From a virus (Duplodnaviria; Heunggongvirae; Uroviricota; Caudoviricetes): 44,088 bases of DNA. Every line of letters starts with the position of its first letter. The stretch's first letter is position 1. The DNA is taken from positions 1 through 44,088 of the IMG/VR virus record IMGVR_UViG_2541047912_000004. One strand, given 5' to 3'. The position numbers were made by a program, and so were the translations under genes. Below are positions 2,344-25,646 of this stretch, piece by piece. The notes below the pieces were generated by a model that saw only the letters and a program-made list of their open reading frames with translations, was not told the origin of the DNA and searched no databases.

Positions 2344-3342
2344 ATGTCTGATATTCGACAAAATAGAATAGAGTTAAATGAAGTGCATATAGCTCGCTCC
2401 ATGGCTATATTTCTAGTTGTTTTACTTCATTCTTCAGGTGCTTTTTTTATGCAGTTTGGAGATCATTGGTGGATTGTTAATTTATACAGTTCTTTTTCAA
2501 GGCAGTGTATAGGTCTTTTTTTTCTTATCACTGGATACCTTTTTTATGAAAAAAACATAAACCCAACAGCACACCTAAAAAAAGGAGTGTCGAGATTGAT
2601 AATACCATTCATATTTTGGTGGGTGGTATATTATATCTACAATACAGAGATTAACAACAAATCATATAATTCTATATTTCAACCAAGTGAGGTACACCTT
2701 TGGTTTATGTATGCATATATTTGTATATATATGTTTTTACCAATAATTTGCAACTCATTAAAACACATACCAACATATTACATTTTAATTATTGTAAGCA
2801 TGCTTTTTTACTCAAATTCCATTGTTCCTGTAGTTGATAAAACGATAATGAAGGTAACATGGTTTGATGTAAAACTAGTGTCTGAAAATGGGATATATAT
2901 CCTTATTGGGGCAATAATAAGGAGATATAACGATAAAATAAAAAAATGCAATGCAGTGATACCATTGGTGATTATTGTTATGTCGTGCCTGTTAACATCA
3001 ATGGCGTCTAGTTGGTGGTCTGAAATAACAGGCAGGCCTGAGCAGTTTTTCTTTAAAAATACATCTCCACTTGTATTAATATGTGTTATTTCTTCATTTA
3101 CATTATGCATGTCATACTCAAAAATAATTAGCAAAAGATTAATGAATTTATTTACATCAATATCAAATGTTTCATTTGGTATATACTTCGTCCATTTCTT
3201 TTTTGTTCGAGAAATTAGACTCGGGTATAATCAAGAAAACGCATATTTCATGATACCATTGCTAACAATCATTTATTTTTTAATGTCATATTGCATATCA
3301 ATAATTCTAAGCAAGATCCCTTTGCTTAGAAAAGTAATATAA
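2344..3342 (+). CDS. Integral-membrane acyltransferase family 3 protein (O-antigen acetylase-like, candidate lysogenic conversion gene)
   Basis: 332-aa highly hydrophobic multi-pass protein. The N-terminal region carries an R..A..LVVLLH motif typical of acyltransferase-3 enzymes. Strongly AT-rich. Convergent with the tailspike, with adjacent stop codons. Placement after the tailspike and next to att parallels oac in phage Sf6. Confidence 0.75.
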   Translation: MSDIRQNRIELNEVHIARSMAIFLVVLLHSSGAFFMQFGDHWWIVNLYSSFSRQCIGLFFLITGYLFYEKNINPTAHLKKGVSRLIIPFIFWWVVYYIYNTEINNKSYNSIFQPSEVHLWFMYAYICIYMFLPIICNSLKHIPTYYILIIVSMLFYSNSIVPVVDKTIMKVTWFDVKLVSENGIYILIGAIIRRYNDKIKKCNAVIPLVIIVMSCLLTSMASSWWSEITGRPEQFFFKNTSPLVLICVISSFTLCMSYSKIISKRLMNLFTSISNVSFGIYFVHFFFVREIRLGYNQENAYFMIPLLTIIYFLMSYCISIILSKIPLLRKVI

Positions 3343-5589
3343 TTATGGATTATTAACCTTCCATCTTTTATCATAGTAATGCAAATATCCCTGAGACGTT
3401 AGTGTCATATGGACAATCGCTTGGGATATTTGCGCGTTCTGAAAATTAACTCTAATAAATACTTGAGTGCCAATTGTTATTTTTGATACAGATATCCCGT
3501 CAAGAGTCTTGTCTCCTTGTATTTTATTAACCCAAACACCTGACGAAGACAAGGTTGCCTGATCCTTTCCGCTTATACTAAATATAATTTTACCTCCTGT
3601 TGCCAGTGAGGTGTTTACTCCATTTTGAGATATTGGAATTATTGTAATTTCACCAGCAATGAAAACACCATTTTTGTATTTAGATTCCTCACCTTGTTCA
3701 CAAATTAAAATATCAATACATCTACCCCATGGTACTAGGATTGTTGCATTTTCAGTTTTTACTTGTGGATATACAGCTGAAACACCTGCAGATTCGAAAT
3801 TTTTTGCTGATAAAACAACTCCGTCAGATCCATTTCTAAATCCCATTCCTGTATGATCACCGTATGTCCTTCCATGAGAGATGAATCCTCTTACATACTC
3901 TTCGGATACTACGCTACCAGTGGTTTCCTTCTGAAAGATAAATGTTTCACCAAAAGAAAAACCACGACATTGGTATTGGCTCTGATAATTTTCTGAGTTC
4001 TTAAAAAAGGAAATGCCTTTATATGCTGTTACATAGCCAGATCTAAATTGAACGGAAACAGGGGTTGTTTGTTCATCTGGAGGTAACTCCACAAAATGTG
4101 TAACATTTTGGCTGTTTGATTCCTGTAACCATACAGAAACACCATCTATAATCATGGTTGAAAATCTACTGTTTATTTCTAACTCAGAAAAATCAAGAAC
4201 ATGATCACCTGTAACACCCTCAACTCCAAACCCATCAATACTTAAAGACCTGAACTGATAGAATTTATGCGGTAACTCACAACCATCAGCTGCAATATTC
4301 ATTGCGCTAGTGTACATTAATGGGTAAGGACTTATAATTGGTTCATATGTTTCTCTATCTATTGCAGCCCCCCAAAGATACCCAACATTACAATGTCTTG
4401 CCCAGTTGGAAGAGAATGTAGTAGATGTGCCAGCCAAACCGAAACCATAGATACAATCATATGCTTGGTTGTTTGTAACATTACTGACAAAGCATGATAA
4501 GGGAAGTGCAAATTTATAATGTAGAAATATGTTATTTTTAATATCATATTCACTACCCCCGCCAAAGGTTTGTGTTTGACCAGAAATGACCAATGGGCTA
4601 CCTGAATATTCATCGTCAGCGTTGCGAAAACACATATTCTTTACTTTAAGATTGTGCCCCCAACTTCCCATAACAAAACCACCACTTCCTGATGTATAAA
4701 CAATACTTTTTTGTGGATTAATCCCATATAGATTTAGACTAATCCCTTCCCATCTAAACTGGCTAATGTCAATTTGAGTGTTACCAATATATATAGGCTG
4801 GTCTATGAAAACAGGAAGTTTAGTTAGATAAGCTTTATTAAGTGCTAATCCATCATTTGTTACACCTGTTAAATCAACGCCACCCATGCTTGGCGCTCTA
4901 GGATACCCTGTGGCCTGAATAGTACTCCAGTCAATATATGGAGCATCCATCCACGCTCCAAACATACGTGGTGTTACGTACCCCTTACCTTGAAGATCAC
5001 GTTTCCAGCGTTTACCACCCGCAGTGACAATGACCATGCCGTTATCATCTGCAGAAGTAGAATCTGTGAAATCGGCCACAAACAGACCACCACCAGTATC
5101 ACCTGATACTGTCGGCTTCATGCCTGTAGTGTGGAAGTCGACGAAAATCTTTTGCTGATCTCGCTCAGGCTCAATTGTCCTTAACATTGCTATATCAGGG
5201 CATGTCCCGATGTATTTAAGACCGTCTTCCCCTGATAGAGATACTTTAAGCTGATCAGGATCATACTTCAGCACATTTGGGAATTTGAACTGCTGTGCAC
5301 CATATGCATCATAAACAGCCATAGAATGGCCTTGCACAGTTACGAACTTGGCAATCTGTCCGTTATATACCGGATATCCAGCATCGTTAATGATGATTGG
5401 TTGCGAAACAGGAACGTGAGAACCGTCTTCATTCTCCACATAAACCTGAATCTGGTTTTCAGGATTTACCGGGTCAGTGTCAATTTTACCGATATAAATT
5501 TTGCCATTGGCTACGGCTTTAAAAGAACGAGCCATAGTGAAGAGTTGCGAAGGCATGCTTACCACAACATTTGCGGTGATATCTGACAT
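3343..5589 (-). CDS. Tailspike protein (P22 gp9-like N-terminal head-binding domain, divergent C-terminal receptor-binding domain)
   Basis: The N-terminus [43 protein letters not shown] closely matches the P22 tailspike head-binding domain. Start set at the internal ATG 5587..5589 (GGAG upstream); the ORF track extends 16 codons further. Confidence 0.85.
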
Positions 5590-5677
5590 TTCATTGCTCC
5601 AGACGAATGATATGATGCAACCATGATGTGATTGCATACCGAAATGGTACTATTGAGTATTTATCCAGTAGGTTACG

Positions 5678-5971
5678 ATGCCATTCCACCCAACTGGTGA
5701 GGCATCAAGGATGTACAGCAAATACGACGAGGCGCAGTTTCACTTGAGACTTCCGCATGAACTCCACGCGAAAATTAAGCAGCGTGCGAAGATGAATAAC
5801 AGGTCGCTGAACTCAGAGATAATTGCAGCGATTGAAGAATCATTGGCTAAACAAAGCTCTGCATCAGTTTACATTGACGATGCAGAGCGTATGGCAGAAC
5901 AACAATCTGATATAGTTAAGAAAATTGTCTTTGATACGCTCAAAGAGCTATATAAAAAAGACAGCAGCTAA
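5678..5971 (+). CDS. mnt: Mnt-like ribbon-helix-helix repressor
   Basis: Similar to P22 Mnt (..NNRSLNSEI.., AERMAEQQSDIVKKIVFDTLKELYKK versus P22 AERLADEQSELVKKMVFDTLKDLYKK). An alternative start at ATG 5711 gives 86 aa, closer to P22 Mnt length. Confidence 0.7.
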   Translation: MPFHPTGEASRMYSKYDEAQFHLRLPHELHAKIKQRAKMNNRSLNSEIIAAIEESLAKQSSASVYIDDAERMAEQQSDIVKKIVFDTLKELYKKDSS

Positions 5972-6060
5972 CCATCAGTTACGGAGGATTTATGCAAAGA
6001 GATATGATGAATATTGCGTTCTACATATTTGGTTTTTGCACGTTCCTGGTGTTTGAAAAG

Positions 6061-8058
6061 CTATTCTGACAAAGCATCAGACTTAGCCCCCTGCGTCAGA
6101 GCGTTAATTGCCTTTTGTGCCTGCTGCATTGCTTTCTCAAAGGCTGTTGATCCGCGTGGGGTGTTTGCCATTCGGAGCATTGCATTTCTGAATGGTTCGC
6201 TCTCATAGGCGCGAGTAAGAAGTCCGTAGCTTACCGCTGCGCCAGTTGTCGCCGGGTTCATTGCCGTCCCATACCCGATAATGAACGGGATGGTTTGCTG
6301 CCCTGTTGGTGTTGTTACTGCCGCTTTTGCAGCCTGCTGCGTGGATTGCAGGTAGTTTTTCAATCCTTTCAGATAAGCAGCGTCCTGCCCCTTAAATGTG
6401 ATGCCAGTCTGGTTTTGCAGGATGTTAAGCTGTCGAAGGAACTGGTCAGGGGATCCGCCAGATTTCTCCATCGCCTTTCCAATGATGCCATTGCGCATTT
6501 GCGCCCTGCCAACACGACCAACTGAGTTATACAGAGTCTTAATTTCCGATTTGTTCTTGCTGAATATCATGTTGTTGACAACTTCCGGCGTCAGATCGCC
6601 TTTCATGAGAACATTCTTCAGCCTGGTATTCTTTAGTTTCGCTGCTTCGTCAGCATAGACGGCATTGGCCTGCTGATATTTACGGAGAGTATCGTTGCCA
6701 AGATTCTGACCAATGGCACCATTGATATCGTCGGTCATTGCCTTGTAAACGCGCTGAATGGCAGCATCGGAACGGTTTGGTAGCACTGGTCGTTCACCCT
6801 TCACGTCCATTCTGAACTGGCTGCGCAGATCGCTTAATTGCTTCAAATCCAGATTTACCGGACCATCAGGACCAGCATTGCGAATAAGCTCATCACGATA
6901 GGATTGAAGTTTTGAAATCGTCTCGCTATCAGCGACCTTACCAAGCTTCTGCAGGTTAGATATCTCAGTATCAATCTGCTGAATTGCTCGCACAGGCTGA
7001 ATGTTTACTCCAGCCATAGCATTCTGAACCTGCTCCAGTCGATTACCGGCAGCACGACGAATTCCTGATGTTTTCGCTTTAAGGCTGTCAATAACAACTG
7101 CCGGATCGTACTCGCCGAATTTATCAGCAAATCTCTGCACCAACTGGCTTCTCGCTTCCTGTTGCGTTGCTCTCATTCCGCTTGTGCCAGCCAGAGGGAT
7201 ATTTTCTGCTGTAGTCTGCGCCATTTTTCCGACGCGGGAAGTTGGTTGTAACAGGTCTGTGGTGTGCAGAGGAACTCCTTCACGCTCTGCAAATCTGATA
7301 GCCTGTTGCGCTTCTGGCGCAATAGAACCACGAACGCCACGATAAGCAGCACCTAACCCACGTCCGGCAGCGTTAATAGCACTGCCAGCCAGCACACCAA
7401 CGCCTAAATCGGTGGCGAGTGCTTCCGCATCATCTTTCGCACTATTTGCAGCAAGTGATCCAACTGCGTTCTCAGCGAGAAGGCGAGTTGCCCCCTGAGC
7501 AATTCGACCAGCAAGTGTTGGTGCCTGTGCTGCCGCTCTCTCAACGCCAGCAGGAGTGAGGTAAGGCAATGCTTCAGCAAATACCCTTCCCTCTGTCGTT
7601 TGTGGAGTCAGCGCGCCTTGCTGAAGGCCAAAGCCCTGCTCTAATCCCTGCGTTGTTACTCGTGGCGCTGGTTGATATGTACCATCGCCAATACCGAGTT
7701 TACCGCCAGCCCAAGCCGCAGCGCTTGTTACAGCATCGGCAACTGATGCAGGTATGTTTGCCACGTTCACGCCAGCCTGCACCAGTCCGCGACCAGTCTC
7801 TTTTACTGCTTCGCCAAGATCAGACATAAATCCATTTTGCTGTGGTTGTTGCTGTGCTACTGGTTGTTGTGTCTCCACTGGCTGCACAGATGGCAATGGA
7901 TAGGCAGCATAGAAAGCTTGCTTAGCCTGCTCTGCATTGTCTCCGGCTTGCGGGGCAACGACTTCATTGAAGTATTGCTCCTGAGCCTGCACTTTTTGTT
8001 CTGGTGCTAACGCCTGATACTGTGGAGAGGCGATAACATCTTTCCATGCTTTAGCCAT
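6061..8058 (-). CDS. Ejection (internal virion) protein, P22 gp16-like
   Basis: 665-aa Ala/Gln/Gly-rich protein at the gp16 position of the P22 order (14-7-20-16). Start overlaps the stop of the upstream gene. Confidence 0.6.
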   Translation of the reverse strand: MAKAWKDVIASPQYQALAPEQKVQAQEQYFNEVVAPQAGDNAEQAKQAFYAAYPLPSVQPVETQQPVAQQQPQQNGFMSDLGEAVKETGRGLVQAGVNVANIPASVADAVTSAAAWAGGKLGIGDGTYQPAPRVTTQGLEQGFGLQQGALTPQTTEGRVFAEALPYLTPAGVERAAAQAPTLAGRIAQGATRLLAENAVGSLAANSAKDDAEALATDLGVGVLAGSAINAAGRGLGAAYRGVRGSIAPEAQQAIRFAEREGVPLHTTDLLQPTSRVGKMAQTTAENIPLAGTSGMRATQQEARSQLVQRFADKFGEYDPAVVIDSLKAKTSGIRRAAGNRLEQVQNAMAGVNIQPVRAIQQIDTEISNLQKLGKVADSETISKLQSYRDELIRNAGPDGPVNLDLKQLSDLRSQFRMDVKGERPVLPNRSDAAIQRVYKAMTDDINGAIGQNLGNDTLRKYQQANAVYADEAAKLKNTRLKNVLMKGDLTPEVVNNMIFSKNKSEIKTLYNSVGRVGRAQMRNGIIGKAMEKSGGSPDQFLRQLNILQNQTGITFKGQDAAYLKGLKNYLQSTQQAAKAAVTTPTGQQTIPFIIGYGTAMNPATTGAAVSYGLLTRAYESEPFRNAMLRMANTPRGSTAFEKAMQQAQKAINALTQGAKSDALSE

Positions 8059-9359
8059 TAATCACCCCATAGTGAAGAAAAGTTACTGCCAGTAGTAGAT
8101 TGTTGCCCTGGCATATTCTGCACCGGCTCCTGATAATCAAACTGTTTTTTAACAGTGTTCAACTTGCTTTCAAGCTGATTTCTAATCTTTCCGATAGAGT
8201 CACGAAAAGCCTTTTCACTCATTTTGGGGCTTAGGGCACCAACCGCATCGGATAATTTTTTACCCTCAGCATCTGAAAGAGCGCCCATACCCTTCAGGGA
8301 CTGCACCATAGGAAGGAATGTTTGAGCTTTAAAGGTGTCGAGCCTTGCTTCAAAGTTAGCTGCATCAGAGCCAGGAACTGTCGGAAACGCTGAGCGAATT
8401 CCTACTGCTTTTGAAAGGCCGGGGCTTTGCTCTATCTCGTTGAGAGAATCAAGCGCGGTGCTGAACGTATCAACTGCACCCTGAGCGGCGGCCTGCCTGT
8501 CAGCGCGTGCTATGTCAGCCTTTTGCCGAACATCTTCCTGTTTCTGTTTTAGCTCTTCAAGCTTTAACTGATTGCTTTCTCTGGCTATCTGTCTGTCCAG
8601 AGCCTTTTCTTGTAATTCTGCTCTTTGTATTTCACGGGAAAGAGCAGCATTCTGTGCGCTGATGTTCTGTCCACGTATCTGGATGTCCTGACCTCGAGCT
8701 GTTAATGCTTCTCCTGCCTGATTGCTGCGGATTGTCTCTGCCAGTCTGCCTCGGTCAATCTCACGACCAGCCATCTTGTCCTGAACATTGAAGTAGTCAA
8801 TCGGACCGAGAGCAGCCATCCCAAGGTGATCAACAAACTCACCAAATCCTGAAGGATTCTGCTGATACATCTGAGAAACGCTGTTAGGGTCAACACCGAC
8901 GCGCGCCAGCTCCTTGGCGTTGTTTTGCAGCCATGATTGCATTGCTTCTGGAGACGAGGCCGCAAGGCGTGCGCCAGCCGCTAAGGTGCCTATAGAATTG
9001 CGCTGGTCTTCGTCTGCCCACTTCATACCAGACTGAATCTTCTCTAATTGACCAGGATATTTGGTCATCAGATCTCGAACCTGCTGTCGATCACCTGACT
9101 GGATGGCTGCCGCATATTCTTTTTGGAATGCAGCATCCGCTTCCTGTTGCTTTGCGGCTTGATATGTTTGAGCGACACTACCCAGTCCCTGCAACGCCTG
9201 AAGGCCGATGTTATTGCGACCTGAACGCTCCATTTCGTTGTTCTGGCGAATATAGGCCAACGCCTCACTTACATCACTTGCCTTTGGCGCATTTGAGTTT
9301 TGCCCACCGATACCAGCAAGAAAACCGCCTGAGTTGATTCCTTGTTGCCAAGTAGCCAT
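8058..9359 (-). CDS. Ejection protein, P22 gp20-like
   Basis: 433-aa protein at the gp20 position in the P22-like late operon; coiled-coil-rich. Confidence 0.6.
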   Translation of the reverse strand: MATWQQGINSGGFLAGIGGQNSNAPKASDVSEALAYIRQNNEMERSGRNNIGLQALQGLGSVAQTYQAAKQQEADAAFQKEYAAAIQSGDRQQVRDLMTKYPGQLEKIQSGMKWADEDQRNSIGTLAAGARLAASSPEAMQSWLQNNAKELARVGVDPNSVSQMYQQNPSGFGEFVDHLGMAALGPIDYFNVQDKMAGREIDRGRLAETIRSNQAGEALTARGQDIQIRGQNISAQNAALSREIQRAELQEKALDRQIARESNQLKLEELKQKQEDVRQKADIARADRQAAAQGAVDTFSTALDSLNEIEQSPGLSKAVGIRSAFPTVPGSDAANFEARLDTFKAQTFLPMVQSLKGMGALSDAEGKKLSDAVGALSPKMSEKAFRDSIGKIRNQLESKLNTVKKQFDYQEPVQNMPGQQSTTGSNFSSLWGD

Positions 9360-9368
9360 ATTCCCACC

Positions 9369-10043
9369 TTAAAACAATGATCCAAGACCACCGATAATGC
9401 CGCCACCAATAGCGCCAACAGCCGTACCTATTCCTGGCACCACAGAGCCAATCATCGCCCCTGATGCCGCACCGCTCATGGCACCGCCCAAAGCTGATTG
9501 CAGTCCTGATGGTCGGTTAGCATTAGCCGCAGATGCTGCCGCCTGCTGTTGATACAATTGGCTGACGTTGTTAGCGTAGTTCTGTCCGGCATTTGCCTGA
9601 CCTGTAAGAGCACCAAGGCCGATATTTGCCAGATTGTTGTAGTTGTTCATCTGACCTGACAGCCAGTTTTGACCGAGTGTAGGTGCGATTGCTGCCAACT
9701 GGTTTCCTGTTGCTGTAGAGCCTAATCCACCAGTTGCCTCTGCTGCTGCCAGACTCTGGTAACGCGCCTGCCCTGCAAGGTCTTTGTACTGCTGGGAGTT
9801 GTAATACTGGTTAAGAGCCTGACCTTGCCCCTGAAGAGAGGAAAGATTCTGCAACTCTGATACGTACTGTTGAGCGAGTGGCGTGAACGGTGCAAGGTTT
9901 TGCATGTTCGTTTGCCACATTTCACGCTGCAGTTCGATACCCTTTTCAGTTGCGCGTGCCTGGGCTTTTGAACCGCCATCACTGCCACCTTTGCAGTAAA
10001 CAGCTTTGCTGAGGTGCTTATTGGCAATCTGGAAAATTAACAT
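9369..10043 (-). CDS. Ejection protein, P22 gp7-like
   Basis: 224-aa protein with a Gly/Ala-rich C-terminus at the gp7 position. The start is uncertain; the ORF overlaps the upstream gene by 26 nt. Confidence 0.55.
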   Translation of the reverse strand: MLIFQIANKHLSKAVYCKGGSDGGSKAQARATEKGIELQREMWQTNMQNLAPFTPLAQQYVSELQNLSSLQGQGQALNQYYNSQQYKDLAGQARYQSLAAAEATGGLGSTATGNQLAAIAPTLGQNWLSGQMNNYNNLANIGLGALTGQANAGQNYANNVSQLYQQQAAASAANANRPSGLQSALGGAMSGAASGAMIGSVVPGIGTAVGAIGGGIIGGLGSLF

Positions 10044-10500
10044 TCTTTAGCTCCTCGTATTTTGAGCGCGGTAACTGATAAATCGTGATGCCTACAGGCT
10101 TTCCATTGCTGGTATAAGCATCATCAAGGTGACCAACACGGGTAGCGCCAAGCAAACGGATAATTGACCGTCCGTATTTCGTGGTGTCAGGAACCATGGT
10201 AATGCTGTTAAGGAATGGTGAGTTTTCGAGAAGCCATTTGCAGAATAATCGATGCCCTTGCAGTGCATATTCGCCACGGAATCCGGGGTCATACACCGCA
10301 TGGCATTCAACAACGCTATGCCAGAAGTTACGCACTTCATGAACGCCAGCCAGCACTAATCCTTCGTAGATGCCGAGATATACCGCATCAGGCTTGATGT
10401 AGTATTTATCTCCACTGTCTACGATATTTCCCGTGTTTGCCGGGTTATTGAGGAATTCTGCAAGCTTCACCGGATTATCGATGAGCTTTATTTCCATCAC
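10018..10500 (-). CDS. Virion assembly protein, P22 gp14-like (assigned by position)
   Basis: 160-aa protein between the tail needle and gp7-like genes, as in P22 gene order. Confidence 0.5.
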
Positions 10501-24637: not shown

Positions 24638-24924
24638 GACTTAATCTTCCCCTCATTCAGCAGTATCGCCTGCGTCCTGATCACACCTTCGAGGTGGTAA
24701 AGTCTGGCGTCTTTGTTGTCGAGATTATGGGTGCGTCGGTCGATTTCATCGTGACACGCGCTACAAGCCCATGCGCCGATCAGGTCGTCAGGCTTCATTC
24801 CCGTTCCGCAAATTCCAGCCATCCGGTAATGTGCCAGAACTGTAGTTTCAGGGTTGCCATTGCATACGCCGTAAATACGTACCTGGCATTCTCTGCCGCG
24901 TGCTTCTTTGCGTAGATTAGCCAT
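24634..24924 (-). CDS. YbcO-like (DUF1364) small Cys-rich protein, putative nuclease
   Basis: 96-aa protein with several conserved Cys/His, upstream of rusA as in the DLP12 ybcO-rusA arrangement. Family assignment is from memory. Confidence 0.5.
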   Translation of the reverse strand: MANLRKEARGRECQVRIYGVCNGNPETTVLAHYRMAGICGTGMKPDDLIGAWACSACHDEIDRRTHNLDNKDARLYHLEGVIRTQAILLNEGKIKS

Positions 24925-25646
24925 TAAGCAGCCTCCCCTGTTACTTTCAGCATTCCGTTATCGAGCAGCTTTCTGGTCAGCCACTGTTGACCACGCCCGG
25001 TGATTTTTGTGGTGAACGATATCTGTATTCCGTGATTTGTGTTGACCGCTGTTTCTTTCACTGTGAAATAGCCGCGATCCATATATTCCTGCATTGGCAC
25101 ATTGCGCCGGGTACCTGAAGCAATAAGGATTTTGTGATCGCGCATCCACGCAAACAGTTTGTTTGGACCAATACCGACAACCTTTGCAAAGTTTCCAATC
25201 AAAATTCCGCTGGCCTCGCCAACGCGATCGGCAAACTCAACTTTAGGTGCGGCAATTGCGAGCTGGTTTTCCAGTTGCATTTTCTGCTCAGCAAGGTCAG
25301 CAGCAAGGCGCAACGCTTCTGGTAGCGTTTTGGGGATATTAACCGCAGCTTCTTCAAGCTCTCGCCAGCGGTCAACAAGGCGAGCGGTGAACTCTGGCGA
25401 CAACTGGGCAACAACAACAATACTATCTCGCTTACCTTGTTCGCCTTCGAAGACGTAATTCTCGTACTGAACATTGAACCCTAAGTTATTGATTCTTTCG
25501 GAAACCTCAATTTGAGGAAGCCGGATAACACCATTTTTAGCCAGCGTTTCGATGGTACGTTTCACATTGTCATGACGCTTACCAACCAACTCAGCGATTT
25601 CAATGCTTGTCATTTTGATGGCATTGCCATTTATTAACTCATTCAT
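24924..25646 (-). CDS. Rha-family regulatory protein with a C-terminal antirepressor (KilAC/Ant-like) domain
   Basis: 240 aa. The N-terminus (MTSIEIAELVGKRHDNVKRTIETLAKNGV) looks like a Rha/Bro-N DNA-binding region; the C-terminal half resembles antirepressor C-domains. Confidence 0.6.
   Translation of the reverse strand: MNELINGNAIKMTSIEIAELVGKRHDNVKRTIETLAKNGVIRLPQIEVSERINNLGFNVQYENYVFEGEQGKRDSIVVVAQLSPEFTARLVDRWRELEEAAVNIPKTLPEALRLAADLAEQKMQLENQLAIAAPKVEFADRVGEASGILIGNFAKVVGIGPNKLFAWMRDHKILIASGTRRNVPMQEYMDRGYFTVKETAVNTNHGIQISFTTKITGRGQQWLTRKLLDNGMLKVTGEAA

Follow-up and report, generated by a model that had tools for sequence, protein, structure and literature searches.

The immI region of phage P22 lies between gene 16 and the tailspike gene (gene 9) and comprises mnt, the operator Omnt with the promoters Pmnt and Pant, arc, sar and ant, with an ant terminator ahead of gene 9. 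The space between gene 16 and the tailspike gene in phages of this type is a variable 'ant moron', which in ST64T, ST104 and Para1 contains only mnt and one unknown gene; in P22 the ant moron affects read-through into the tailspike gene, a process in which Mnt and Arc may take part (Villafane et al. 2008, PMC2629481). For the mnt-only region of phage L, the possibility that mnt is a functionless relic has been raised (Zaworski et al. 2020, PMC8022706). Such mnt-only regions are very common among P22-like prophages in Escherichia coli, Shigella and Salmonella; what they do has been a side question ever since the genomes of phages L and ST64T were described. Here we analyze one of them, in a viral record of 44,088 bp (IMGVR_UViG_2541047912_000004, positions 1 to 44,088; hereafter the window). 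The window is a P22-like (Lederbergvirus) E. coli prophage of the Sf101/IME10 type, with its map reversed relative to the usual phage orientation.

The locus shares with P22 immI the site between genes 16 and 9, the strand of mnt, a two-domain Mnt, a homologue of Pmnt, and a candidate operator placed, as in P22, 1 nt from the Pmnt -35 hexamer. It differs in that arc, sar and ant are absent, Pant has decayed, no ant terminator precedes the tailspike gene, and both the operator half-site and the recognition residues of Mnt have changed. In the mnt-only ant morons of Salmonella phages L, ST64T and ST104, mnt also diverges from the tailspike gene, over about 135 bp and without arc or ant, and the operator and Pmnt are likewise retained while Pant has decayed. 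These phages differ from the window, however, in having a Gln-Asn-Arg class of Mnt (about 49% identity) with a perfect operator, AAGACCAC-G-GTGGTCTT, a downstream gene (orf62) on the other strand, and a retained P22-type tailspike leader.

We think it somewhat probable, judging from the sequence comparisons below, that the locus is a self-contained, autoregulated Mnt cassette. The prophage would have kept only the mnt half of P22 immI within the variable ant moron. The cassette would comprise an operator, a Pmnt-like promoter abutting it, and mnt with its ribosome-binding site; a 25-codon open reading frame (ORF) may be transcribed along with them. The elements at its core, together with the vestige of Pant, are:

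5635..5651, no strand assigned: candidate Mnt operator CATACCGAAATGGTACT (17 bp) with the dyad core TACC-N5-GGTA, placed by alignment with P22 Omnt.
5653..5679, plus strand: Pmnt-like promoter TTGAGT-15-TACGAT, the positional homologue of the annotated P22 Pmnt.
5656..5684, minus strand: vestige of Pant, ATGGCA-17-AATACT, directed at the tailspike gene and found at the P22 Pant position.
5696..5702, plus strand: mnt ribosome-binding site GGTGAGG, read from the sequence.
5711..5971, plus strand: mnt, encoding an 86-amino-acid Mnt-family repressor with an N-terminal ribbon-helix-helix and a C-terminal Mnt tetramerization helix, identified from Pfam and PDB matches and identity to P22 Mnt.

Mnt would be a tetrameric ribbon-helix-helix repressor made in the lysogen, most likely binding 5635..5651 and so regulating its own transcript; we infer both the binding and the sign of this autoregulation. 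The operator would also overlie the start region of the former Pant.

The protein belongs to the Mnt family by domain and structure matches. Its N-terminal DNA-binding domain matches Pfam PF03869 (Arc; E 7.5e-15, residues 7-49) and its C-terminal tetramerization helix matches PF11423 (Repressor_Mnt; E 2.1e-13, residues 57-82), while the top solved structures are 1MNT (residues 6-79, E 3.5e-19) and the Mnt tetramerization domain 1QEY (E 1.7e-08). Together with 48.8% identity to P22 Mnt, these matches identify a true Mnt-family repressor. The ORF list gives the gene as 5678..5971, but ATG 5711 is the most likely start because GGTGAGG lies 8 nt upstream of it, because ATG 5678 overlaps the predicted -10 element, and because the Prokaryotic Genome Annotation Pipeline calls the 86-amino-acid form in E. 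coli genomes. The ribosome-binding site is kept as GAGGCAT in most of the aligned classes and differs in P22, epsilon34, Serratia and Buttiauxella gaviniae relatives. Comparison of the ORF map with the annotated P22 record places mnt where it is typical of the family, between gene 16 and the tailspike gene and on the strand opposite the late operon.

The ORF map, the domain matches and tblastn searches all bear out the preliminary description's statement that mnt lies between a gp16-like gene and the tailspike gene without arc or ant. Neither of these genes, nor sar, adjoins mnt, and the gap from mnt to the tailspike start is 121 bp. The whole space between the gp16-like and tailspike genes is 471 bp and contains only mnt and the 25-codon ORF, which leaves too little space for either arc or ant to lie there unnoticed. 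We nevertheless considered an unrecognized copy of either gene beside mnt and rejected it, as tblastn over the whole window returned nothing better than E 0.1 (at best E 0.21 for P22 Arc, and E 0.11 for P22 Ant, the latter inside a distant Rha/KilAC gene).

Alignment of the mnt-tailspike intergenic regions to the annotated P22 control region places CATACCGAAATGGTACT on P22 Omnt, AGGTCCACCGTGGACCT, and both end 1 nt before the ATTGAG that holds the Pmnt -35 hexamer. To the left of the operator the classes differ completely, with GATGCAACCATGATGTGATT in the window class and a P22-type tailspike leader in the classes of phages JEP4 and VSe13 and of locus L040 (L-numbers denote loci in our comparison). 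BLAST homology between the window class and these three classes begins at 5632 to 5635, the left edge of the operator, and everything to the right is common to them. The core TACC-N5-GGTA(C) is kept in those E. coli, Shigella, Salmonella, Citrobacter, Buttiauxella and Serratia relatives whose Mnt has the recognition strand AQFHLRL, and a Buttiauxella relative (L094) has a perfect site, GTACC-N5-GGTAC, with 5-bp arms. A search of the 44-kb window for a second site, using the 17-mer with up to three mismatches, TACC-N5-GGTA, relaxed forms of GTACC-N5-GGTAC and the P22 operator itself, recovered only 5635..5651 or matches at chance level. The search for P22-type operators that the preliminary description had proposed thus yielded no further site in the prophage.

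Across three classes of Mnt, each found in several genera, the recognition strand and the operator half-site co-vary in the alignment:

His-Phe-Asn-Phe-Arg with half-site AGGTCCAC: P22, epsilon34, Pluralibacter and Pectobacterium.
Gln-Phe-Asn-Leu-Arg with half-site AAGACCAC: L, Gally and a degraded copy in Symbiopectobacterium.
Gln-Phe-His-Leu-Arg with half-site AGTACC: the window class.

Knight and Sauer reportedly found that the operator specificity of Mnt is set by Arg2, His6, Asn8 and Arg10. Three of these four positions have changed relative to P22 (Arg2 to Tyr5, His6 to Gln9 and Asn8 to His11 in window numbering), and the last is kept as Arg13. The analysis therefore makes concrete operator predictions for the second and third specificity classes, which narrows the question of the mnt-only regions without answering it, and the pairs of recognition residues and half-sites could help work on the specificity of Arc/Mnt-type repressors. 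Lying at the position of P22 Omnt beside a conserved mnt promoter, 5635..5651 appears to be a better operator candidate than the inverted repeat that the preliminary description had singled out, to which we return below.

The distribution of the operator bears on an explanation in which Mnt acts in trans, with resident Mnt repressing Pant in superinfecting relatives whose ant lies behind an operator of the same type, and so preventing antirepressor-driven induction. P22 Mnt has an established role of this kind against superinfecting P22 (PMC11016777), and the explanation would account for purifying selection on mnt and for the conserved recognition strand without any target in cis. We nonetheless regard it as improbable, for the operator type was never found beside arc or ant, either among the matches listed from a scan of viral contigs for ATACCGAAAYGGTAC or in 95 unique loci defined by the protein. 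That scan returned at least 120 stretches, about half of them unrelated chance matches; among the matches listed, all the P22-like ones have the mnt-tailspike layout. Five unrelated loci in the same scan (L126, L131, L155, L166 and L194) carry two copies of ATACCGAAAYGGTAC 515 bp apart, and none of them has homologues of Mnt, the tailspike, Arc or Ant.

The state of the two divergent promoters was gauged with a simple position weight matrix, which recovered P22 Pant (TTGACA-17-TATATT, 16.7 bits) and Pmnt (TTGAGA-17-TATCAT, 14.3 bits) exactly at their annotated coordinates. The Pmnt homologue is among the best plus-strand matches in every mnt-only class; its score is highest in Gally (11.7 bits), followed by L (10.5), JEP4 and VSe13 (both 9.2) and the window (8.5). 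At the position of Pant, by comparison, the score falls to 6.8 in the window and 4.1 in phage L and lies outside the top matches in Gally and JEP4; the vestige in the window went unreported in our consensus scan, and its -35 hexamer varies freely among the mnt-only classes (ATGGCA, TCGGCA, CAGGCA, TAAGCA). The Pant equivalent has decayed, then, while the operator and Pmnt are kept. As a side observation, the window class, the E. coli A3 prophage and L033 have a 2-bp deletion, relative to JEP4, VSe13 and L, in the spacer common to the divergent promoters (5659..5673); it leaves a 15-bp Pmnt spacer and brings AATACT on the other strand into a 17-bp register with ATGGCA.

With both the -35 and the -10 element of Pant reduced in quality, leftward transcription into the tailspike gene would be weak at best. 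The simplest reading for tailspike expression is that late-operon transcription continues, during lytic growth, beyond gene 16 into the tailspike gene and so would run antisense across mnt. The preliminary description had named the tailspike as one possible target of Mnt, and this idea survives in weakened form: the leftover Pant may work, with bound Mnt silencing the tailspike in the lysogen, or Mnt may act as a brake on late read-through and so set tailspike dosage. Relative to the leftward promoter, the candidate operator extends from about +1 to +15, as it does in P22, and the published effect of the ant moron on read-through in P22, cited above, would fit such a role. We consider tailspike control rather unlikely, however, given the low score of the leftward promoter, its variable -35 hexamer and the lack of any known benefit from silencing a cytoplasmic tailspike.

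A further point that could favor a role at the tailspike gene is the linkage between the two genes. Among the 95 unique loci encoding this Mnt N-terminal domain, the tailspike gene is the divergent upstream neighbor in 94, and the remaining locus lies too near a contig end to tell. The mnt-tailspike gap is 121 to 136 bp in 78 of the 94, and the other 16 hold a homing-endonuclease-like ORF, IS2 or other extra sequence. About 12 relatives carry an ORF of the first kind, which resembles HNH/AP2-type homing endonuclease genes, encodes 164-179 amino acids and lies on the mnt strand between the tailspike start and the mnt control region (for example at L017 3330..3869, L052 3369..3869 and L091 2636..3130), with the first tailspike codons (MSDIT) duplicated at the junction. 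In L010 (E. coli FACU 2024, 2687..3915), mnt is intact and an inserted IS2 beside the operator separates the mnt control region from the tailspike gene. We considered whether the larger gaps could hold cargo under Mnt control and rejected the idea, as their contents are HNH/AP2-type endonuclease-like ORFs or IS2.

The linkage holds even in L157 (IMGVR_UViG_2648501336_000006, 7309..10417), a CUS-3-like endosialidase phage with three Mnt-like genes. Two of these precede an Arc-like gene and a P22-type ant (85% identity), and the third, of the window class, adjoins the tailspike gene, with a 270-amino-acid gene between it and ant. Since L157 has a complete immI as well as a window-class cassette, the cassette is not simply the remnant left by loss of arc and ant from a P22-type immI of the same lineage. 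It is tempting to speculate that the Gln-His-Arg mnt and its TACC-N5-GGTA site form a selectively maintained mobile cassette tied to the 5' ends of tailspike genes, which would either set tailspike expression, by repressing or blocking entering transcription, or act in trans against the antirepressor modules of competitors. This broader proposal, which draws on the 94 of 95 loci, their spread over six genera and the case of L157, where a complete immI encodes further Mnt proteins, is tentative, and the linkage could equally reflect the boundaries of recombination modules.

Whether mnt is maintained at all can be judged from its polymorphism. Among 52 distinct window-class alleles there are 35 synonymous and 36 non-synonymous codon variants, which puts the non-synonymous/synonymous ratio per site at about 0.25. 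One allele carries a nonsense mutation, and the other 51 are intact. The mnt of the window class is under purifying selection. These figures argue against the suggestion made for phage L, applied here, that mnt is a decaying relic without function that persists after the loss of arc and ant only because it is harmless and the loss recent. The partly asymmetric operator, the shortened Pmnt spacer and the occurrence of some pseudogenes and operator mutants would be expected of such a relic, but the class is spread over six genera with its operator core kept, and L and Gally keep perfect palindromic operators without ant. We give the relic explanation little credence. Tailspike control, action in trans and decay are all possible, and sequence alone does not separate them.

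Several points also weigh against the autoregulated cassette that we prefer. The dyad of the candidate operator is matched at only four of eight pairs in the window, compared with six of eight in JEP4 and eight of eight in L and P22. At 15 bp, the Pmnt spacer lacks 2 bp relative to JEP4, VSe13 and L, a change expected to reduce promoter strength, and our promoter matrix is crude. In L018, L074 and L088 the operator core is mutated although mnt is intact; conversely, mnt is disrupted in L053, in L096 from Citrobacter (by an early stop codon, in a locus whose operator core is mutated as well) and in the prophage of strain 8GC (by a frameshift), so that selection, while present, is not strict. 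Finally, a repressor that regulated only itself would leave the maintenance of the cassette unexplained. We agree with the preliminary description that the target of this Mnt is not obvious, and any target beyond its own cassette is hypothetical.

The possible operator named in the preliminary description was an inverted repeat upstream of the tailspike start:

5615..5637, minus strand: inverted repeat ATGCAA-N11-TTGCAT, located by arm search, which would form a hairpin with a 9-bp stem in the tailspike-sense RNA leader.

The repeat is real. Its arms extend to 9 bp (8 of 9 complementary) around a 5-nt spacer, and it is unique in the window, although the 6-bp version is within chance expectation (0.42 matches expected, and at least one in 37 of 100 shuffles). 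As a 23-bp near-palindrome between mnt and the tailspike gene, which becomes a perfect 9-bp repeat in IME10-type (C5621T) and L073-type (A5631G) variants, it has the outward look of an operator. It is, however, confined to the window/Sf101/IME10 class and absent from the JEP4, VSe13, L040, L094 and L095 classes, whose Mnt proteins have the same DNA-binding domain and recognition strand, so it cannot be a conserved Mnt operator. It also lies outside the segment homologous to the P22 control region.

The variation within the arms is suggestive of an RNA structure. On the tailspike-sense strand the single mismatch is a U.G pair, which the two variants above turn into U-A or C-G, and the arms have five other substitutions, of which three (at 5634, 5630 and 5629) result in U.G or G.U pairs and two disrupt pairing. 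Through such U.G pairs the RNA remains paired where the symmetry of the DNA is broken. In the tailspike-sense RNA, 99% of the cells compared across the arms pair, with five extra pair types; the changes are one-sided only, with zero double compensatory changes, and the shuffle control was uninformative. The hairpin fold in the window is without significance (z -1.17). The P22 and L tailspike leaders have a different hairpin, CCGUAGCCAUGCUGCGG, longer in L (z -2.6), which ends 27 nt before the tailspike AUG as against 25 nt in the window. We conclude that the repeat is probably, with modest support, a leader-RNA hairpin of the tailspike gene, and that a role as the Mnt operator is very improbable. 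The CCGUAGCCAUGCUGCGG hairpin itself, on the minus strand at L004 1586..1602 (P22) and at about L241 1378..1400 (phage L), lies inside a 'boundary sequence' found beside ant as well in P22 and CUS-3.

The other target put forward in the preliminary description was the only antirepressor-like gene of the prophage, in the nin region:

24924..25646, minus strand: Rha/KilAC antirepressor-like gene (Pfam ANT, E 9.5e-33; Phage_pRha, E 1.3e-08).

These matches uphold its standing as the sole antirepressor-like gene, which is what would recommend it as a target. Yet it overlaps both of its nin-operon neighbors, sharing 8 nt with a NinF-domain ORF upstream and 1 nt with YbcO downstream, and therefore has no control region of its own and no room for a promoter or operator. 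Elsewhere in the window there is neither an operator match with up to three mismatches nor a TACC-N5-GGTA dyad, and relaxed dyads occur at chance level with none near the gene. Regulation of this gene by Mnt is scarcely credible. The distant antirepressor and the inverted repeat are thus removed as likely targets of Mnt.

The preliminary description may be read as implying that a lone mnt is rare, which our results do not support. The layout is common in E. coli P22-like prophages and, being already in the literature, is a known state. The tailspike-mnt-gp16 arrangement is found in IME10 (96.5% identity over 801 bp) and Sf101 (95.3% over the aligned 680 bp), and the lone-mnt layout occurs also in phages ECO26.1, JEP4, Gally, VSe13 and L, with a more distant mnt in the last four. 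Among 5426 complete E. coli genomes, 143 match at least 80% of a 541-bp probe and 409 have partial matches. A literature search on Sf101 together with Mnt returned only unrelated MNT and Mnt proteins. The prophage itself is of the ordinary Sf101/IME10 type, and nothing unusual follows from it.

The genes around the cassette are:

3343..5589, minus strand: tailspike gene, homologue of P22 gene 9 (Head_binding match, E 6.8e-66).
5992..6069, plus strand: 25-codon hydrophobic ORF, MQRDMMNIAFYIFGFCTFLVFEKLF, directly 3' of mnt and overlapping the gp16 stop codon, with a ribosome-binding site GGAGG at 5983..5987.
6061..8058, minus strand: gp16-like ejection protein gene, the last late gene ahead of the mnt cassette, from the ORF list and relatives.

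The true tailspike start is ATG 5589, with a GGAG ribosome-binding site (5597..5600) 7 nt upstream, and over the N-terminal 110 residues its identity to the tailspikes of relatives is 74-98% in nearly all cases, with a few lower values, down to 54%. The tailspike frame stays open for 16 further codons 5' of this start, to ATG 5637 within the operator and repeat, and the ORF list accordingly gives 764 rather than 748 amino acids; as ATG 5637 has no ribosome-binding site, the extension is probably accidental. The gp16-like protein is 34-39% identical to the C-terminus of P22 gp16 and 98-100% identical to most E. coli relatives, where the gene is annotated as a DNA transfer or lytic transglycosylase protein. 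A consensus scan found no terminator-like site between the gp16-like and tailspike genes and none after mnt, and the fold of 5960..6110 was without significance.

The frame of the 25-codon ORF is open in all 45 unique relatives, with CTG replacing the start ATG in one, and has 10 synonymous and 18 non-synonymous variants. It recurs in the Gally/LF82 prophage, there behind another gene, lacks a PHROG match and is unannotated in the records examined. It could encode a small membrane peptide expressed in the lysogen.

Sf101 (Shigella flexneri) and IME10 (E. coli) are 95-97% identical to the window in nucleotide sequence over the tailspike start, intergenic region and mnt, including the inverted repeat, but differ in the receptor-binding parts of the tailspike, and at the gp16 position Sf101 has a longer gene (2736 bp, 'lytic tail fiber protein') without a match to the C-terminus of the window gp16. 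JEP4 and the E. coli A3 prophage share the Mnt N-terminal domain, the operator type and the divergence from the tailspike gene; they differ in the C-terminal oligomerization segment of Mnt, in having a P22-type tailspike leader without the inverted repeat, and in an additional immunity-like module between mnt and gene 16, absent from the window (L005 3270..5930 in JEP4, L011 4361..6792 in A3). In this module a helix-turn-helix (C2-like) repressor gene diverges from Rha and KilA or P22AR-C antirepressor-like genes.

Mnt proteins of this group are mosaic: behind the same N-terminal DNA-binding domain, those of the window and Sf101 have a P22-like C-terminal helix, and those of JEP4 (L005), VSe13 (L002) and A3 (L011) have an unrelated segment, EEERLxSLISERVKEVAADILRKEKTRD. 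The pattern suggests domain shuffling, perhaps avoiding mixed tetramers where several Mnt-like proteins coexist. Mnt homologues are also widely mislabeled in public records. In RefSeq phage records (Sf101 NC_027398 gp14 and the P22 RefSeq) and in PHROG 795 they are called 'partition protein ATPase', a label that is wrong for a ribbon-helix-helix repressor of 83-86 amino acids; the Sf101 gene is annotated under this name with a longer start giving 97 amino acids, and the mnt of IME10 is unannotated.

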